Position numbers and translations under genes: made by a program. The notes beneath the pieces are model-generated. The model saw nothing but the letters and a program-made list of their open reading frames with translations, was not told where the DNA came from and ran no database searches. A stretch of 63,559 bases of DNA, filler included, from Gonapodya sp. JEL0774 (taxonomy: Eukaryota): the NCBI GenBank assembly GCA_027604505.1. It is 52 parts of 52 records of this genome, joined end to end, with 100 filler letters (N's around TTAATTAATTAA, not from the genome) between each part and the next. Parts side by side here need not be neighbours in the genome. Positions count along the whole stretch, not along the records: positions 60,008 to 61,125 come from JADIIX010003842.1; 51 more parts are not named here. One strand, 5' to 3'. Positions 10,980-63,559 of the stretch are shown here, piece after piece. Each line of letters starts with the position of its first letter. Positions within the stretch are counted from its first letter, which is position 1.

Positions 10980-12307
10980 NNNNNNNNNNNNNNNNNNNNN
11001 NNNNNNNNNNNNNNNNNNNNNNNTTAATTAATTAANNNNNNNNNNNNNNNNNNNNNNNNNNNNNNNNNNNNNNNNNNNNGACGTGTCCTCGCGTTCCTTT
11101 CACGCAATGGTGGGACATCCAAAGTCACAACTACAACGTGACATGGAATCAGCTGCTGCATGAGGATGGTGGGTGCTGAGTCACCGTCCACATCCAAGGT
11201 TGACACTCGTTTCACACTTCCTACACCAGGGAGTTTAGAGATATGAGTGAGCACCTCGGTGTCATGCGCCTCGCCTTCAAATGCAAAGCAGATAGTGTCA
11301 CGACTGTGATCTTTCTGCGAGAGAGGTGTTTCTTGAGCTGGCGAGTGAACTGAGTGCAACGCCTTCCCTCTCCCCATTCGTTCGATCGCCCAATCGTACG
11401 CAACACGAGTGTCATTGTAAAAATTATACCGGGGTGGGCGATGCCGAAAGTTGTGGGAGTGGTCGAATTCCGCAATTGCTGGATGAAAGCCAACAACCAC
11501 ATTCCGCAATGCGTAGAGACCGCTTTCCTGAAGACCAGCGTGGTCTTGAGCCAAGATGTCAAAATTTATCGCCTGCATGTAATCTTGAACGGAGCCTAAG
11601 GGCTCGTCCAGGTTGAGTAATCGTGCTCGAGGAAGAGTTTCACTACTGGGTGAAACAAGTGGGGTAAGCCTTATGACTGAAAAGGCAGCAGATATCCAAC
11701 AAAAGAGAAGTTCAATTGAGCTAAAGCCACCACCACGGTGCCATGAGTGACTGAATGCGACTGGCAGCATCTGACTCTGAGACGTTGGTATTGCATCACC
11801 CGTTGCTGAGCGTGGCGGTTTCTCACCGACGTGGATGACAAGAACCCCCAGGCGAACTCCCACCGTTGCATGTGACGTTTGTGAAAAGTCCCACCCAAGC
11901 AGCAGAGGTACCCGTCGGGGTTGGGCCTCCACTTGGTGCTCGGGATTGTATGCACCTCCCTCTGGAGGGAGAAAAACGTGAAAAGTATGGGGATGCACCC
12001 CACGATTGGTATGAACCGAGAACATTGGTCTGACAAAAGTCAAAGAAACGTGGCAGGCGAATGCAAACATCGACAAGTCTTCCTCGGTCCTCCCACTTGT
12101 TCCTTCCGCGCTCGTGATCGCTTTCCCCTCACACCTGAGCGCTGTAAAGCCTGCCTCAAGCTCCTCCGCAGTCGCTTCACGCGTAGTACAGAGCGAATGA
12201 GTTCCTGNNNNNNNNNNNNNNNNNNNNNNNNNNNNNNNNNNNNNNNNNNNNTTAATTAATTAANNNNNNNNNNNNNNNNNNNNNNNNNNNNNNNNNNNNN
12301 NNNNNNN

Positions 12308-14762: not shown

Positions 14763-15889
14763 CGTCCACCCCTTCATCAGTCAATTTTCATGCCTCTACT
14801 GCTCCAAGGGAATCTGAAATGGAACCGTTTAAGCCATTCTCCCTCCCTTCTGCTCTTGAGACTATGAGGGCTTTGGTCTCTCTTATTGATGTGAAGAATC
14901 GCCATCACACAGACTCTAACCATAGAATTGTGGCCCTTGGCCTGTTGACAATTGCGTTTGAAGTTGCTGGAGCCAGCATAGCAGACTGGGTGCAATATGG
15001 CAAGAAGGTGGCTAGATGGTCCCAACAGTTAACACTTGGTGCCACATCTGCAACATCTGACATTGACTTAAAGTGCGTGTCGGGCCAACAGAGGAATCAT
15101 CTGAAAGCAGTCACAAACTCTGCCCCAGACAACTCTGATTTGCATTCAGAAAGAGCAATTGCTTTGAATTATCTAGAGCTTTCAACACACTCCAATTTCT
15201 CATCACTTATTTGTGATGACCTGTGCCATCATCTTTTTGCAATCTTGAGAATGGAGAATGTTACATTTGGAAATCCTCCATCATCAATGCAGTTGACTTT
15301 GATTCAGTCTGCTCTTCAATGTGGTGTAGCACTGTTTGCAGCTGCTAGAAGAGAATTAAGGGTGCAATGGGAGTTCTTCTTGGATTTCTTAATGACAAGG
15401 TGTGAACAGGGAGTTGTTGGTTGGGATGTTGGGGAATGGGGACGTTCCTCCAGCCAGCAGTCTTCTTCAGTACCAAAGTCGCTTGATCTCCTCAGTGATA
15501 GAAGGGGGTTAGTTAATGTCCGCTGGCCACTCACAGGGGAAGTACGGGAGTTGATCCTGGAATCACTGACCCAAGTACAGTTTGTGACTGTGAAGGAATT
15601 TGTGTTGCACTATCAAATGACAGTCCTCTGTTTCTGGCTTAATTTATCCAGTTTGCTCGCATCCCAACTTTCTTGCATGAATTGTATGTCAATTTTGACT
15701 GTAATCTGCACTCGCAGTACCATCTTTATGAAGATGTTGTAGAGTTCTTAGCCAAGGTGTGTACTTGATGTGGTGACTCGAGGTATAGTTATAATTTGCT
15801 GACATCTGCTGCGAACATCAGCACTCATTCCCAGATGCCACACCTGGAGGACCTGTCACTTCATTGCAGCACCAAACTGTCTGCTTAGA
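14763..15889 (+). CDS. GEA2: Sec7-family ARF guanine-nucleotide exchange factor, Gea/GBF1 type (internal fragment, HUS region)
   Basis: KPFSLPSALETMRALVSLIDVKNRHHTD...AFEVAGASI, and after an intron FARIPTFLHELYVNFDCNL (HUS box Y-x-N-Y/F-D-C). Confidence 0.85.
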
Positions 15890-16365
15890 NNNNNNNNNNN
15901 NNNNNNNNNNNNNNNNNNNNNNNNNNNNNNNNNTTAATTAATTAANNNNNNNNNNNNNNNNNNNNNNNNNNNNNNNNNNNNNNNNNNNNACAAAAAGTAG
16001 GGATCGGTGGGAAGGAGGAGGAGGGCCGGGCATCAGGCTGGACAAGCAGACGGTATCCACCCGTCCTGCCTATCCTAGTCGCTGTGGTACGTCACACCTC
16101 ATCGGAGGACGAGAACATATCCTGTCATCCTGCTTGTCCTAGTCCTTGCGGTATGTCACACCACACCGGACGAAAAGGTCGTATCCTGCTGTCCTGCCTG
16201 TCCTCGGCCGCTCCTTGGCCCGTGCACTCGCTCCGAGGAAGGAACCGTGTGGAACACCCTCGAACATTCCTGAAAGAACTTTCGAAGACTGTTGGAAACA
16301 AAAGATGCACCCAAATCCCTGACCCCCTTCCAAACGAAAATCTTTCAAAGGTGACATTCGAGAAG

Positions 16366-17116
16366 ATGCCAACCACGGTGAATGACGGTTCTCCGATGGA
16401 CATGGACGACGACGAAGACACCAGAGGCAGCAAAGATGGGGTGTACAGAGAGAGCCAAGTGAGCGATGCTCTCAACCGCGCTCTGGGTTCACCGGTGAAA
16501 ACGATGTGGACCGAACGAGGCGGCCGGCTCTGGTCCAGCGGTACGAGCTGTTGGTGTCCATCGTCGCATCGCGAGCGTGGTCTTCCTGGAAGCGACAACC
16601 TCGACGACCTCGACGACCTCGACAACCGCGATGGTCGCTGCGTCGAGTGGTATGTGAACGTTCACGATGACAGAACAGTGACGACGTGGTGTGCTTAGCA
16701 CGGAGAACGGCAGTTGGAACTACCTGTAGCGTATGCCGTCCACCTCGCGGTCGGCACAGTGTACGTTCGAATGACCGAGGGCGCGACGGAATATGAGGCC
16801 CTCCGCGGCACAATGTACAACTACGCAAGGGTTCACGGACTTCGCCGGGACGGCAGCACGGGGGACATCTACGAGCCTGTGCAAACGAGAAGTGCATGGA
16901 CTCCAAGACGTTCCTCTTCCGGGTCTTCTCGCAGGATTACCGCATGTTGGCTAAGAACCGACGGTACCAGCGCGACCTCGTCGAATCCCTGATGACCACG
17001 CCTGACCCCCGTTTACCGGTGCTGCGAGTGTGCAAGCGTTACTTTGGCTTCCGCAACGGGATCTACAACATTGAGACCTGCGAATTCACACCTCGGGATA
17101 AGGTGCCGGTGGTCGT
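16366..17116 (+). pseudogene. D5-like primase-helicase N-terminal region of NCLDV (giant virus) type, disrupted
   Basis: Conceptual product YARVHGLRRDGSTGDIYEPVQTRSAW / KTFLFRVF...DPRLPVLRVCKRYFGFRNGIYNIETCEF matches the D5_N-type F-x-N-G-[VI]-Y-[DN] motif. It has an in-frame TAG at 16696-16698, a frameshift near 16890-16905 and no evident introns. Confidence 0.65.
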
Positions 17117-21144: not shown

Positions 21145-21473
21145 ATTCATGCTCGAACACACCGTACAGAGAAAGCTTAATCTACTTTATCCGACGGCCA
21201 TAGCACCGTCCTCCAATGTGTGCACCAAGTTACCCACGTTCCCTAGTGTAGCTCACTAACCAATAACGCTAGAACAAAACTGTAAAGAACAAACTTGTAG
21301 AGCATTCTACGGCAAGTAATTTTACTCCATTAAATATCCCCGAATTCCAGCTCCCTGTGGCGCTAGAGCCGTCCGAAATAACAAAACCTCCCATATCTCA
21401 ACACCACGGAGCTAGGGTCGTCGGATAAACTAGATTAAGCTTTTTCTGTATGACGTGTTCGAATAAGTGAATC
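21144..21473. repeat. Imperfect inverted repeat pair of about 66 bp (21144-21209 and 21406-21473) around a spacer of about 195 bp
   Basis: Left arm GATTCATGCTCGAACACACCGTACAGAGAAAGCTTAATCTACTTTATCCGACGGCCATAGCACCGT. Reverse complement of the right arm GATTCACTTATTCGAACACGTCATACAGAAAAAGCTTAATCTAGTTTATCCGACGACCCTAGCTCCGT. Confidence 0.9.
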
Positions 21474-21896
21474 ATGACCGCTCAACACACCCCGACCCAA
21501 CCTTGGTGTTGTGGAGTGCACCCTATGTAAATCCCTCTTGTACTTCTTGCCAGCCTTGCAAAACTCTCCCCAGTAAGGTTCATCAGACCAATGATCTTCT
21601 GCAAAGTGGTACATCCCACCACATTCCCTGCACTGCATGAAGATCTCCCTCAATTTGCATTCCAAACAATCCCTTGCAAGCTTCTTGATGCCATCATCAC
21701 CACAATGTTTGCAGATCTTCTCACTGCTGCACTGAAACGAATAGTGTCCCTGTCCCTCGCAATTCATGCAAATCTGCTTTGAGCTGCAATCCATAGAAGA
21801 ATGACCCAATCCCTCACAGTTGTAGCACCACAATGGGCTGAAACAGTCCCTCTCAAAATGGCCACTGCCACCACAGTTATTGCATCCAAAATCCAT
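21435..21896 (-). CDS. Multi-CCHC zinc-knuckle (nucleocapsid-like) ORF inside a copia-type LTR element
   Basis: Three perfect CX2CX4HX4C knuckles, one degenerate knuckle (CKHC...DC) and one CX2CX4HX4H. The ORF starts about 95 nt after a PBS. Confidence 0.85.
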   Translation of the reverse strand: MDFGCNNCGGSGHFERDCFSPLWCYNCEGLGHSSMDCSSKQICMNCEGQGHYSFQCSSEKICKHCGDDGIKKLARDCLECKLREIFMQCRECGGMYHFAEDHWSDEPYWGEFCKAGKKYKRDLHRVHSTTPRLGRGVLSGHDSLIRTRHTEKA

Positions 21897-21992
21897 CCTG
21901 TTTGATCCTCAGACGAAACCGGTTAAACGGCTCAGATACCACTTATTGTTGTCAATCGTCCAAAACGTCCAGATCTTCAAAGTTGAGCAGCC

Positions 21993-47809: not shown

Positions 47810-48930
47810 TGTTCAGATTGTCAAAAATATTACTCACCTGGATCAAAGTATGAGGTTTGCATTTGTGCAATAAGTTTTCTCATACTCTCTGGGGGAGCAA
47901 GCTTGGCAGTGTATCCTATTGCAACTCCCATTGATTTTCTAATTGCAGCATTGCGATCCTTCATGGCAGTCACCAGTGCACGAAGAAGGAGTTCAGAATG
48001 TGGCTGAAGAAGACTGGGTATTTGTACAGTGAGGGATACTAAAATCTTGGCGGAGCCTGCCTGTTAAATGATGTCAACGGTTTAGGTGCTTTGAAATACT
48101 GGGGTAGTGACTCATGGTGTACCTTTGTGGGGAGTCCAACTCCACGACGGATTACCTCAGCAAGCTTTGGTGCAAGATTATTCATGACTCTTTCGTCAAT
48201 TTGAATAATGCAAGTCTCCATTGCATCCATCTGATACCAAAGAGGGCAATTTTGAACTTTTGCTTCTCAGCAAACCTTTGAGGAAAAGACACTCACCATG
48301 GGAGACATTTTGGCAGCACTTAATCTTGAGCTATCAATTTGCTCTTGAGTGAGGTTATACTTCTCAGCATGAAATGTCAGGTAGTCTATGGGTTTTGTCA
48401 GAAAATTCTCAGCCATCAATAAAGCCTGAGTTCTTCATCATATGTGCTCACTCATTGCTTGAGGTTCTAATGTGGAAAGACTTTCCAGTAAAACTGTGAC
48501 TATGTCAGGAATATGGGGTTTTAGGAGTATACCGCCACGTTTCACAAGTTTGAGAATTGTTTGAAGACTGAACTTCTTCACATCTTCAGCCATATTGGCA
48601 AGTCCCTTTGGTGAATGAATTAATGAAAGTCAACTTTCATTACATATACTAGGGTTCAAAATATCACCTTTTGGAGCATGAAGGGAAGCACAATATCAAC
48701 AATCTTTTGACCATCTGAAGCTGAGGCAACAGTGGGGTCACAATATTTGATGGTGACAGTTGTCAAAGAACGGCATGCTGACAATGCTGCAACCCTTACA
48801 GACTCTTTTATGTCATCTAAGCACCGAAAGCACATTGTCCAGAGAACGGCCATGTTGGTCTCCAGCTGCTCAAGTTGACGGCCAGTCAGCAAATCTGATA
48901 GAGCAATACAACTAACCATTTCACAAGTCT
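47810..48930 (-). CDS. ECM29: Proteasome adaptor Ecm29, internal multi-exon fragment
   Basis: SCIALSDLL...LWTMCFRCLDDIKESVRVAA, LLESLSTLEPQAM, RLSAAKMSPM, IRRGVGLPTK. Confidence 0.93.
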
Positions 48931-56350: not shown

Positions 56351-57469
56351 AGAGTGTGGGAAAAGGCTTGTATGTCAATCTGGGTGTGGTGAAGGGCATA
56401 ATTTGTAAGCTCAGTTGTGTGCACAGAAAAAATATAGATAAGCAACCCAACATCCATCTCAACACTTTGAGACCTGCGACTCTTGCTGGACCCCAAATGT
56501 CCACATGAACACGCCCTCCAGGGTTGGATGCTCTTCTTCTTTCTGGTTGTGAATAAGGGAACTGTGCTGCTTTTCCAATTTTGCATCCATAACAAAATAA
56601 TGAGTGCTGCAAATCATTCAATTTGACATCCTTCATCTGTCCTGTTCTCACAATACTCTCCAGATCACGCTCATTTACATGCCCTAGTCGGAGATGGGCT
56701 AAAGCATGGTGCATGTCTGCAGCACTTTCAACACTTAACACCTTCGCAGTATACTCTGCAGGGTTCAACTTTGCTGTAATAGGCATCTCGTATAATCTGC
56801 CATTTGAAGAGTGTCCCCTGCAAATCTCCTTGCCATCAGCATCAGCCAGAATGCAAAGATTGGTTTTGGCAGGAAAAGAGACACTGAAACCAAGTTTCTG
56901 CAATGCAGTAGTTGCCAAAAGTGTAGATCGTGCTCTTGGATCATAAATCACTCTGGGAATGTTGATCTCAGTCTCAAAGCCCTTTCCATGAAATGTGACA
57001 CCCAAAATGCCCCTCCCAACTGCAGTTGATTTCTGACCCTTTGCAGCCAATGATAGAAAGATGTTCTCCTGCTTAAATGAACTAAGACCCTGTCCAAGTG
57101 GTGTAATACAGTCTGATGCACCAGAATCAATCAGAAATCGATGTCCCTCATCACTGACAAGAAATGTCATTGAATCTGTATTGGCTGGATTGGTGGTATC
57201 AAATGAGTATGAAAACAAGTTTGAGCAGACGTATCTTCATATTGGCCTTGCTTGGTTGGGTCAGACACAAGCAGTCCCTTTTTAGGGGGACAAAGGCCTG
57301 AATGCTCCGGCACACCCCGACCCAACCTTGGTGTTGTGGAGTGCACCCTACGTAAATCTCTCTTCATGTTCTTGCCAGCTTTGCAGAAATCTCCCCAGTA
57401 TGGCTCTTCAGACCAATGATCCTCAGCAAAGTGGTACATTCCACCACATTCCCTGCATTGCATGAAAAT
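56351..57469 (-). mobile_element. Ty1/copia retrotransposon fragment: zinc-knuckle ORF end, aspartic protease, GAG-pre-integrase, start of integrase
   Basis: FLIDSGASDCITP (protease), LAHLRLGHVN...CYGCKIGK (HHCC) and RVHVDIWGPARV (integrase start) in copia PR-IN order. The upstream knuckle ORF is in a different frame, and homology is lost after about 56450. Confidence 0.93.
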
Positions 57470-59907: not shown

Positions 59908-60007
59908 NNNNNNNNNNNNNNNNNNNNNNNNNNNNNNNNNNNNNNNNNNNNTTAATTAATTAANNNNNNNNNNNNNNNNNNNNNNNNNNNNNNNNNNNNN
60001 NNNNNNN

Positions 60008-60846
60008 GCATTGTCGTACACTCGTGAACGCATGCCAATCGTAGGTTTATACACATTAGCAAATTCGAAATCCCACAATTTGGCAAGGACACCAGGAAAA
60101 CGAACGTGAAACACGAGTGTATCGCCCTTGACTTTATCCACCCACTCGTATCGTACATATGTTGGGGGAATTCCACGTTGCTCTTCCTCCTCTGCACTCA
60201 GAAGCGATGTGTCTAGTAAAACATTCCCAAAGTGTGTGTCCGCATGAACCAGGCCATACTTGTCTTGTAAAATTGCAAGTGTCCACATTACACTAAACAC
60301 TGTATAGCGCCAAACTTCATCGCTCAACTGTTCGGGCGCGTTGTCTATGACGTGGTCCAAGCCACCTCCACATACATACTCCGACACCAACACGTTCGCA
60401 TCAGGGTACGGAGAGCACTTTTTGTACCGCTTTGTGCGAAACGATTGGAAGGCCGGAGACTCCAAGTCCGCAGTCAAATCACCAAAACACGCCGTCAGGT
60501 GAGGGGTTTCTCTCACACAAGCTTGTAATGCTCGCAGGATTCCCGACTCCAAAAAGGTTGGGTGTTGAGTAAGATTGTAACTCCTCGATAGTGGATTCAG
60601 CTTCACCACATATTTGAGAGCGTCGTGAGGATGATCATAGACACAAGCCAAAATACCTTTGAGCTCAGAACTTCGTCCCTTGTGAATGATAGACTGATAT
60701 CCAAAACCAAACTGCGGCTTCTGAACGTCAAAGCGCTTGCCAACTTTCTTGCCAACAAGTCGTGCCCTACCCTTTTTTATAGCCGTCAGTCGCTCAGATA
60801 GTGTAAGATGGGGAGTACCTTGGGTGTCGATATTACTCATTACCAT
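60008..60846 (-). CDS. NCLDV (Mimiviridae/Imitervirales-type, F10-like) Ser/Thr protein kinase, 3'-truncated
   Basis: Intronless ORF with YVVK, ETPHL, NVLVSEYVCGGGL, WRYTVFSVMWTLAILQDKYGLVHADTHFGNVLL and FHVRFPGVLAKLWDFEFA. The motif order matches the conserved giant-virus kinase, which has DFxFA instead of DFG. Confidence 0.8.
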
Positions 60847-60912
60847 CCTATAAAACTTCTCTATGATTTTTTCACTTTAATCATCATTTCAATCACACAA
60901 AATTTTCCGTAA

Positions 60913-61125
60913 TTACTTTCCCGCCCATACTCCGCAGTTGACCGTCCCGGTCGCACTCGTTGCGGACCACCCAGCAACACTCGTCGCTTGAGACCCGGCG
61001 GAATTCGTTTGAGAAGAGGCGCCGGAAGAGTACGCTGGGGCTGCCCACCGGGCAGGACCAGGACTGAACAAGGGCGCAGCAGCATTACATGTAGCCTTCT
61101 TTTGCTGCGGCACAGTTTGGTTCAC
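60913..61125 (-). CDS. 3' end of a hypothetical ORF immediately upstream of the viral-type kinase
   Basis: Open to the contig end on the same strand. Its stop is only 66 bp (AT-rich) before the kinase ATG. Confidence 0.4.
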   Translation of the reverse strand: MNQTVPQQKKATCNAAAPLFSPGPARWAAPAYSSGASSQTNSAGSQATSVAGWSATSATGTVNCGVWAGK

Positions 61126-63559
61126 NNNNNNNNNNNNNNNNNNNNNNNNNNNNNNNNNNNNNNNNNNNNTTAATTAATTAANNNNNNNNNNNNNNNNNNN
61201 NNNNNNNNNNNNNNNNNNNNNNNNNTTTGAAAAAAGCATAGCACTCGTTAAGAGTTTTGTGCCTTTGTTCGATAACAGGTTTATACCGCCTTCTCCACCG
61301 GTTCAACAGCCGAGACTCTGATTAAAGAGGAAACTGTTTGTCAACTCTTCGAAACAGGCCAAAGCTTGAAGATCCATGGTTGGGCGTTCCTTTTGCCAGT
61401 CTTTTATGGTCACCTAGAACACGTCACTCAAAAGATCTCTCAACTTATTCGTTAAGTTAACAACTTACGCAGCTCACGCAGCCTGTAAACAGGCCCAGCG
61501 TTTGCCAAGCGCTCGCTATCAACATACAAGAATGTCAAGAGCTTGAAAGAGAGCATTCTTCGGAGCAAGCTGTCGACGTGAGCACCGGATACAAGTATCC
61601 ACTAGCTTCAAGAAGACATTCTTGCAAAGGTGTCTTAGTATAATGTTACCCATAGGGCATCAATACACTGAGATCCTCACAGCGAGATGAATCAATAATG
61701 AACCAACTCGCGCCTTGTCTACCTGGCCATTCCAGTTCTTTCGAACCTTCATCCAGATAGAAGCCAAAAGATATAAGACGTGTCAAACATTAAAAATGCC
61801 CGACTATCTTAATTACCAGTCAGCTTACTGCCTTCTATTAAGCCAACTGTTTTCACGCAAAAGGGCCAGGTGTGCATAGACACACAACGTTGAAAGAGTG
61901 ATTTAAACCCGCGGTTTGTTAAGCCCCGGCCTCTTATTAACGCTTTACCAACCCTTCTCATGGAAGACGAGCCATTAAACAAATATGATGACTTGGGAGA
62001 TTGCTCTCTTATACTCATCTTATTTGCTTTCTGGAATCGCCTTCCATACATATGGCGCGGCCCCTGATTTTTGGTAAAATGGTCACCGGGGGAACAGACC
62101 ATACGCAGGGACCATGTGGACCAGGCACTGAACTGGTGCACAAACCACCTGCACAAACCCTTCCCGCATTGCGTCCAACCCTTCGCTCCCACCACCGCCC
62201 CACAACAGAAGTTCATCTAACTGTCTGACTGTGAACATAACCCATTATGTGCGGGAGTTGTTTGGGTACAGAACCAACCCACGGGGTTGACTATAACTCC
62301 GGGAATGATATGCCCGAGCCACCTGCACCCTGCACCAACATGNNNNNNNNNNNNNNNNNNNNNNNNNNNNNNNNNNNNNNNNNNNNTTAATTAATTAANN
62401 NNNNNNNNNNNNNNNNNNNNNNNNNNNNNNNNNNNNNNNNNNTGGACAGCCTCCCATTCCTATCAATGAGGACTTCGTGGAGCCCTGAAGTTTCAAAGGA
62501 AATGGGCGTATAACTACATAAAACAGTCCTTGCGTTCGAATCTACTATTGGTGATGCAAACCATTTGGATCTGGGATATTTTCGCCCCCTTGTAGGGTTT
62601 GCGGTGTACGAATAACAAATTAACTGAGTGCAAATTATATAATAAACTCAAGATTTATGGTTGACAGCCACAAATATATCATTGGTCTATTCCTGTGACC
62701 TGGGTCTATCGCGGCTGCGCTTGGGGGGTCCAAGTGGAAAGACCAATAAACCAACCCCACCGAAAGGTTTTGAGCGACATCCGGTTTCGCCATTAGGAAC
62801 GCGGTTCCATGGTTTCTGGTTCTCCAGAAGATTACGAAAGTAGTGAGTTTCAACTTGGATGTTCTTCACGACCTGCGAGGCATCGGGAGTGGTGACCAGC
62901 ACGTGGTACGTAGCGCGCGCGGACCGGGAGCGACACCGATAAAGATTTCTTCTACAGCATATCGATGTGTGAAACTGCATGTCTTTTCTTCATCCCAATT
63001 GCAACCAGAACCCAAGTTTGTGTCTTGGCATACCCCCCGGGTCACGAATCCACCAAACCAGCTCAACAGGTTCCTTTTCGAAAGGACTGGCGATTTCTTG
63101 GGTCTAAGAGAAGCGTAAACAAACTCATCAGTGGAATTTCATTTTTCGTGAGTTTGTTCAACAGGCGATGGCAACGCTTCCAATACTCAATATGCCTTTA
63201 CATTAACCTCCTTTGTCGTCTCAGTGAAGTATACAATGGAGCACCCTTACGCAGCAAACATTTTTGCAAAGCGGAAGTCGGAGCGCAGGCTCTCGCCACT
63301 CAACCCGGCTGCGACCTCTTCCTCCGGCTCCCCTCATGGGACAACACCGGGTTCTCCGCTCGCCAACCAACTTTCGCCATCCTCACCCACTTCGCAGGCA
63401 TTCTTGGATATGTCGCTATCCCAAATGAGCTACTTGCCATTGCCGGGTCCAATGCTTGTTGGGACTGGAGGGGCTTCGGCTTCCCCAGTGGCACCTTTAC
63501 ACTCGCCGCCTGCGGGTGGTGGGTCATTTTCAACGCAACCAACACCCGCAGCAACTAAT

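Follow-up and report, generated by a model that had tools for sequence, protein, structure and literature searches.

Giant viruses of zoosporic fungi have been described as the Mycodnaviridae (MY_02, formerly IM_02; proposed order Mycodnavirales; passages of PMC13533422 and PMC13524828). According to the consulted passages of the family paper, these viruses are integrated in Allomyces chromosomes, the provirus genes of Allomyces Burma1F are silent, and Dimargaris gives the one non-zoosporic capsid hit (PMC13533422). The order was placed basal to Imitervirales in the available sections of PMC13524828, and giant-virus-type sequences in eukaryote assemblies are mostly inserts according to the excerpts of PMC5294986. 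With regard to kinases, two subfamilies out of three in the haspin-related kinase (HRK) family are viral (excerpts of Kannan et al. 2007, PMC1821047), and vaccinia F10 is packaged and needed for morphogenesis (passages of PMC4213562). A kinase is mentioned 0 times in the searched text of the Mycodnaviridae family paper (PMC13533422), and our search of the literature on viral F10-like and haspin kinases found no treatment of the kinase clade reported here. The searched part of a phase-separation preprint (10.1101/2024.09.01.610734) held nothing relevant.

In this study, we analysed a window, that is, the whole stretch of 63,559 nucleotides from Gonapodya sp. JEL0774, which consists of 52 contigs of 1,117–1,132 bp each, joined by a fixed linker (N44 + 12 bases + N44). 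Because the contigs were joined artificially, adjacency in the window is not adjacency in the genome. Contig 50 (60008–61125, 1,118 bp) lies end to end between two such linkers (59908–60007 and 61126–61225). We believe that this contig is probably a fragment of a Mycodnaviridae-like giant virus that was integrated in the fungal genome without domestication, a judgement that covers origin and integration jointly; the viral origin of its kinase, taken by itself, is nearly certain. The contig resembles the described family in carrying an intron-free viral-type gene in a fungal assembly (passages of PMC13533422 and PMC13524828), but differs in that it holds one partial gene only, with no capsid or other marker.

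The contig carries the first 279 codons of a haspin-related kinase gene with relatives on giant-virus DNA. On the minus strand, a frame of 279 codons without a stop opens with the first ATG at 60846 and continues up to the contig edge (60010–60846), where it is cut shortly after the DFE motif. This confirms the initial annotation, which had described about 280 uninterrupted codons without introns. None of 500 base shuffles of the contig reached at least 279 codons (longest 224). The same annotation had called the gene intact; this applies to the visible 279 codons only, because the frame has no stop codon and the contig end truncates the gene. The nearest relative (P0004) has 477 aa, of which 276 are covered by the contig kinase (P0001) at 42% identity (E 7e-51), and since the contig ends within the frame, about 40% of the gene lies beyond it. 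The kinase family has no match in any other frame of the contig, and therefore there is no hidden frameshift. No repeats of note were seen in the contig.

Of the motif series on which the viral assignment had originally been based, TPHL (residue 114), VLVSEYVCGGGL (residue 152) and KLWDFEFA (residue 256) were present as written, whereas the third motif matched only with looser spacing (residue 179). Lys82 (60601–60603, minus strand), the beta-3 lysine, forms a positional pair with Glu100 (60547–60549) and is invariant in 27/27 aligned clade members. The catalytic loop HADTHFGN (60223–60246, minus strand) contains His201, Asp203 and Asn208, all invariant in the alignments, and is without the HRD arginine; the metal-binding Asp259 lies in the DFE motif (60064–60072, minus strand), which is preceded by a beta-hairpin insert common to haspin. 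All six of these residues were thus kept, and they are invariant in the clade alignment of 27 rows. Of 39 family-conserved columns, 33 are retained in the contig kinase, which places it fourth from the bottom among the 27 rows. Judged from its sequence, it is divergent yet without visible decay.

The AlphaFold2 model, built with 27 sequences, had a mean pLDDT of 88 and a protein-kinase fold, and Pfam gave sub-threshold kinase matches only. A kinase-like fold, the Lys, the Glu, HxD, the Asn and the metal-binding Asp, which are the features of a Nucleocytoviricota haspin-related kinase, were all found. A Lys-Gly pair is conserved in the kinase family, and the GxGxxG loop is absent. Full-length clade members also carry, in the region beyond the contig end, a long Ser/Asp/Glu-rich C-lobe insert with a short conserved Y-x-T-D-E core (alignment A5, columns 400–640).

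Haspin is the cellular kinase that the contig kinase resembles most. It occupied the top 12 ranks in the Foldseek search against the PDB (TM about 0.5) and led the wide structural search (Z 14.8 and 14.4, with PINK1 next at 13.9). The alignments with the haspin structures 3dlz and 9wgw (Z 14.4–14.8) span 206–210 residues; the fold is shared, as is the hairpin that is inserted after the catalytic loop and before the metal-binding Asp. Profile searches were also led by haspin (E 2e-6 and 4e-15), hairpin insert included. These best solved-structure and profile matches would suit a fungal kinase of ordinary type, for example a diverged haspin (Alk1/Hrk1 type). However, the identity to haspin is 12–16%, compared with 30–42% to viral-type relatives; HAD and DFE replace the HRD and DYT of haspin; the Pfam Haspin_kinase profile gave no match at E up to 1; and the 837 bp hold no intron. 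We consider an ordinary fungal kinase extremely improbable, and the first assignment of the gene as not of the fungal protein-kinase type was supported.

The family itself is haspin-related, so a haspin-like appearance does not refute a viral origin. Among 96 relatives examined at E 0.05, 59 matched Haspin_kinase and 3 matched Pox_ser-thr_kin, and we conclude that the kinase is both haspin-related (HRK type) and viral, and that it is not poxvirus F10 by Pfam. The viral HRK subfamilies likewise have haspin as the nearest cellular relative and no GxGxxG loop, but they lose N-terminal elements, whereas the contig kinase keeps the beta-3 lysine (excerpts of PMC1821047).

All 9 listed nearest Atlas clusters were 86–100% viral, mostly Nucleocytoviricota, with scores of 0.94–0.98. 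A phmmer search over 1.84 billion proteins returned 108 matches, the query's own record included, and none of the 107 others had the haspin-type DYT or DYS motif (11 of the 107 had no motif called). A third protein search found no further named fungal member. Scans of IMG/VR with the relatives gave 42 and 72 overlapping loci, and 17 of the first 42 were named GVMAG. In the first 40 loci (L001–L040), a divergent 128-aa neighbour was common to 37 and a SNF2-RING helicase to 29, while a Ulp1/I7-like protease lay within 10 kb in 26 and a P9 minor-capsid-like gene in 24, counts that include near-duplicate loci. These IMG/VR-type kinases were 27–33% identical to the queries and formed a sister clade. 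In the structure search against viral models, giant-virus kinases came on top, with a Mimiviridae protein best (TM 0.69). The explanation as an ordinary fungal haspin was rejected as a candidate, being contradicted by the viral Atlas clusters, the giant-virus loci of IMG/VR and the tree described below.

Members of the narrower clade of the contig kinase were found in other collections. IMG/VR scanned with single-protein and two-sequence queries gave no match, and clade-specific patterns were found in 0 of 30 candidate stretches there and in 8 loci among 132 candidates in metagenomes. The 8 metagenome loci were gene-dense (0.70–0.97 by a crude ORF count) and contain genes of the RING, ankyrin, NUDIX, adenine methylase, papain-like, eIF2B/5, TnpB-like and histidine-kinase types; the 51 of their 77 ORFs that were scanned included none for a capsid, a polymerase or an ATPase. 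The phage collection and PHROGs gave no kinase match, and a scan of roughly one half of the prokaryote collection turned up 2 loci, namely one contig of a 'bacterial' MAG and a weak Nocardia match. The former (L119, RFTN01000011.1) carries the kinase with 5/5 tested giant-virus neighbours and is a mis-binned giant-virus contig. In one metagenome locus, the clade kinase is split over several frames by decay or assembly error (L111:1446–2591), and another, on a gene-dense clade contig with a GC of 0.55, has a TnpB/Fanzor-like gene with a hybrid histidine kinase (L115:16916–20397).

A maximum-likelihood tree was built from 50 rows picked for spread from about 165 proteins and from the loci, with only the columns covered by the contig kinase; its groups were named after earlier trees. 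This phylogeny, like the protein search, had been proposed as a check by the initial annotation. The contig kinase and P0004 formed a pair (96/89) nested in a clade of 29 rows (98/95), to which the Catenaria anguillulae protein ORZ29935.1 also belongs and which is sister to the IMG/VR-type kinases. When the long-branch neighbours P0004, P0082 and P0085 were dropped, it stayed in the clade (99/98). Its branch is long (1.09–1.39), and a FastTree run gave no starred grouping for it. The kinase had been proposed to be Mimiviridae-related; the Nucleocytoviricota type was supported, but a forced position in the Mimiviridae-like IMG/VR clade was rejected (AU p = 0.016), and the kinase belongs to the sister clade instead. 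This sister position matches the published place of Mycodnavirales basal to Imitervirales.

The Catenaria protein provides the one named anchor for this placement. ORZ29935.1 (strain PL171) is 35% identical to the contig kinase, lies on a 71,494-bp contig, and passes the Pfam Haspin_kinase threshold (29.7 bits vs 25). This contig has the length of Catenaria scaffold_116, to which we link it on the basis of the equal 71,494 bp and neighbouring accession numbers. Supplementary table 7 of PMC13524828, as far as consulted, scores this scaffold as viral between bases 3 and 71,493, counts 44 viral hits among its 86 ORFs and names the markers D5 and MCP. The capsid ORZ29943.1 (MCFL01000116.1) is listed beside Blyttiomyces, Dimargaris, Gonapodya and Synchytrium capsids in the MCP tree of PMC7017919, a listing taken from the PDF labels and not from the drawn tree. 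Catenaria was absent among the MY_02 genomes in the table of PMC13524828 that was searched, and was not named in the Mycodnaviridae text searched, including passages of PMC13533422 and PMC12247965. Since the Catenaria scaffold was not found under MY_02, membership in Mycodnaviridae is likely, not shown. The 636-aa model of ORZ29935.1 (P0166) matches a 415-aa record at 99% identity across 413 aa, and the remaining stretch of about 220 residues at its end may belong to a neighbouring gene that the gene caller joined to it.

We also considered that the fragment might come from a different giant-virus lineage of fungi, either a Pithovirus-related fundsalphavirus or an unsampled family outside Mycodnavirales. 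Fundsalphavirus is defined by a Pithovirus-related PolB with linked RNA polymerase genes (passages of PMC7017919), and at least five giant-virus PolB clades are associated with fungi (passages of PMC13533422). Within the clade, the contig kinase and P0004, its sister, diverge early, most clade rows have no known host, and the contig has no marker gene, all of which would leave room for such a lineage. However, the Catenaria protein belongs to the same clade, whose sister group is formed by the giant-virus kinases of IMG/VR, in line with the published position of Mycodnavirales, and Pithovirus kinases appeared in the structure search only from rank 15, with TM 0.55 or lower. We therefore regard another lineage as highly improbable and the Mycodnaviridae-like reading as the better one.

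The surroundings of the kinase were then compared with those of host and viral genes. The Duc1 domain has a fungal range. A Duc1 domain in the window contigs points to a fungus, and a Cox4 in the window matched yeast-type entries (E 1e-10) more closely than it matched mammalian COX5B (7e-5), so that these two sequence markers point to a fungal host. The other window contigs carry eukaryotic genes, and no ciliary families reached the threshold in the 252 window frames scanned. In host genes on other contigs, 9 of 11 hand-picked intron candidates (59–94 nt) restored a stop-free frame, which bears out the frequent short introns noted at the outset; the set was picked from consensus matches and is biased to canonical ones.

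Upstream of the kinase, an Ala/Ser/Gly-rich frame of 70 codons plus TAA (60913–61125, minus strand, GC 0.60), open at the contig edge, ends with its TAA at 60913. It is separated from the kinase ATG by a 66-bp A/T-rich spacer (60847–60912, GC 0.26), exactly as the initial annotation had described a co-oriented ORF ending 66 AT-rich bp upstream; the GC of the kinase segment is 0.47. We believe that the upstream frame is likely, though unproven, the end of a neighbouring viral gene, and that the spacer is likely a viral intergenic or promoter stretch. The upstream frame gave no Pfam or PHROG match and is therefore counted as an open frame and not as a shown gene; it also had no match to any ORF of the clade loci or IMG/VR loci. 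In other window contigs, only deubiquitinase and helicase genes of host type matched ORFs of these loci. The spacer lacks the early promoter octamer of mimivirus, and visual inspection of the clade loci revealed no upstream motif in common.

The same stretch can be read as a 69-nt GT-AG intron (60848–60916, minus strand). In this case, the fungus would have domesticated a virus-derived kinase that gained an intron (60916–60848) and was joined in frame to the low-complexity upstream exon. Removal of the GT-AG stretch indeed gives a 349-codon frame without a stop, 69 nt fits the host intron range of 59–94 nt, and the long branch and host-like composition agree with domestication. Lone viral capsid genes have also been found among host genes in three chytrids (passages of PMC13533422). 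Among tandem gene pairs, a GTR...YAG in-frame bridge was found in just 7 of 330 from IMG/VR and in 2 of 15 from the clade loci; since these are real viral pairs, such a bridge is uncommon, not rare, and any GT-AG bridge was present in 49 of 330 and 6 of 15 pairs, respectively. The composition of the stretch argues against an intron. Its C and A contents are 0.03 and 0.42, pyrimidines make up 0.30 of its final 30 nt, and it has 4 additional AGs, whereas the 9 frame-checked host introns have C 0.16–0.34, A 0.14–0.34, pyrimidines 0.48–0.70, and 0–2 AGs. It thus lies outside all 9 host introns and within the 18 spacers of related viral contigs (C 0.03–0.33, A 0.19–0.46). In addition, most relatives start within about 15 residues of the 60846 ATG. 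We consider domestication quite unlikely. A fuller version, in which the spacer turned intron, the low-complexity exon was fused, and the product became a second, virus-derived haspin acting on the fungus's own chromatin, is very unlikely.

An undomesticated viral gene could lie in the fungal chromosome or in free viral DNA. Integration is favoured because of published precedent only, namely the Allomyces cases and the predominance of inserts among such sequences in eukaryote assemblies. The composition of the kinase contig did not set it apart from host contigs: GC was 0.484 (rank 13/52), the CpG ratio 0.97 (rank 37/52) and the trinucleotide make-up rank 29/52, all host-like. The same viral gene might be unintegrated and come, in a low-depth assembly, from a giant virus that was replicating or was sequenced together with its host, this host being the fungus, a prey organism or a contaminant. 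This would suit the 837 bp without a lesion and without the CpG loss seen in the copia contig (CpG 0.22), and the viral contigs of Allomyces Cali8 were found at about 50-fold depth (passages of PMC13533422). Two CpG-poor contigs with eukaryotic genes (0.25 and 0.27) may also signal a second organism in the assembly. However, a broken D5-like gene in the window is CpG-normal as well (1.05–1.11), and therefore the CpG ratio does not tell resident DNA from free DNA. In most of the fungal genomes studied, the depth of viral contigs was like that of the host (passages of PMC13533422), and an abundant free virus would be expected in longer contigs. We regard an unintegrated virus as possible but unlikely, and the integrated fragment remains our preferred explanation. 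The insertion would be recent, or the provirus still latent, because the 837 bp show neither a stop nor a frameshift and all six catalytic residues remain.

The product would be an ATP-dependent Ser/Thr kinase, as its residues suggest. Because the HRD arginine is lacking here, activation-loop phosphorylation would likely be no switch. We speculated that the kinase would phosphorylate the virus's own proteins during particle assembly, and we hold the balance for this role to be even. It is favoured because of the analogy with vaccinia F10 and because a minor-capsid gene and a Ulp1/I7-like protease lie near the sister-clade kinases. Like vaccinia F10 and the NCLDV 'F10-like' kinases, whose orthologous group we take to be NCVOG0295, the contig kinase would be a viral Ser/Thr kinase with a possible analogous assembly role. 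However, it has no Pox_ser-thr_kin match, and the 'F10-like kinase' of Tupanvirus was a weak structural match (rank 14, TM 0.58, 16% identity); as Pfam gives no support for F10 orthology, the assembly role is an analogy only. Haspin phosphorylates histone H3 at Thr3. A haspin-like action of the viral kinase on host chromatin by histone H3 mimicry is doubtful, and other roles take up the remaining probability. A proviral copy of the kinase gene would, like the provirus genes of Allomyces Burma1F, probably be silent.

These results indicate that the kinase is a real, divergent fragment of a fungus-associated giant virus, of a kind already described between 2017 and 2026. Because giant viruses in early-diverging fungi are already described, it is one more divergent footprint (42% identity to the nearest relative). 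The association of a giant-virus kinase with a fungus, as first suggested, was supported by the 86–100% viral Atlas clusters, the relatives among giant-virus genes and the clade with Catenaria. The kinase clade, which was absent from the IMG/VR scan and present in metagenomes and on the Catenaria scaffold with its capsid gene, may be useful as an additional marker of fungal giant viruses where assemblies are fragmented. Automatic annotation can file such viral kinases as fungal haspins, since the Catenaria protein passes the Pfam threshold. If the kinase acts on host histone H3, by analogy with haspin, this would offer a testable route to interference with fungal nuclear division.

Other contigs of the window also deserve mention. 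No capsid, polymerase or ATPase genes were found in the 252 window frames scanned, which are a tiny part of the assembly. The contig at 15990–17116 carries a broken D5-like primase gene (16366–17116, plus strand) with an in-frame stop at 16696–16698 and a frame change near 16900, followed by an end that resembles D5_N (E 0.11 in Pfam; 0.95 to the D5_N clusters of the Atlas); its IMG/VR matches cover only a 16–18-residue motif. This contig is possibly a second, decayed virus- or polinton-like piece. The contigs at 14763–15889 (Sec7-type) and 47810–48930 (ECM29) have the CpG ratios of 0.25 and 0.27 given above, compared with a window median of 0.89 and 0.22 in the copia contig (56351–57469), and may be methylated duplicates or belong to a second organism in the assembly. 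A 375-codon frame spans the whole contig at 11081–12205 (minus strand) and had no Pfam or PHROG match. Two diverged copies of one zinc-knuckle region lie at 21438–21908 and 57170–57469 (minus strand), the latter just upstream of the copia-type pol frame (56352–57236).
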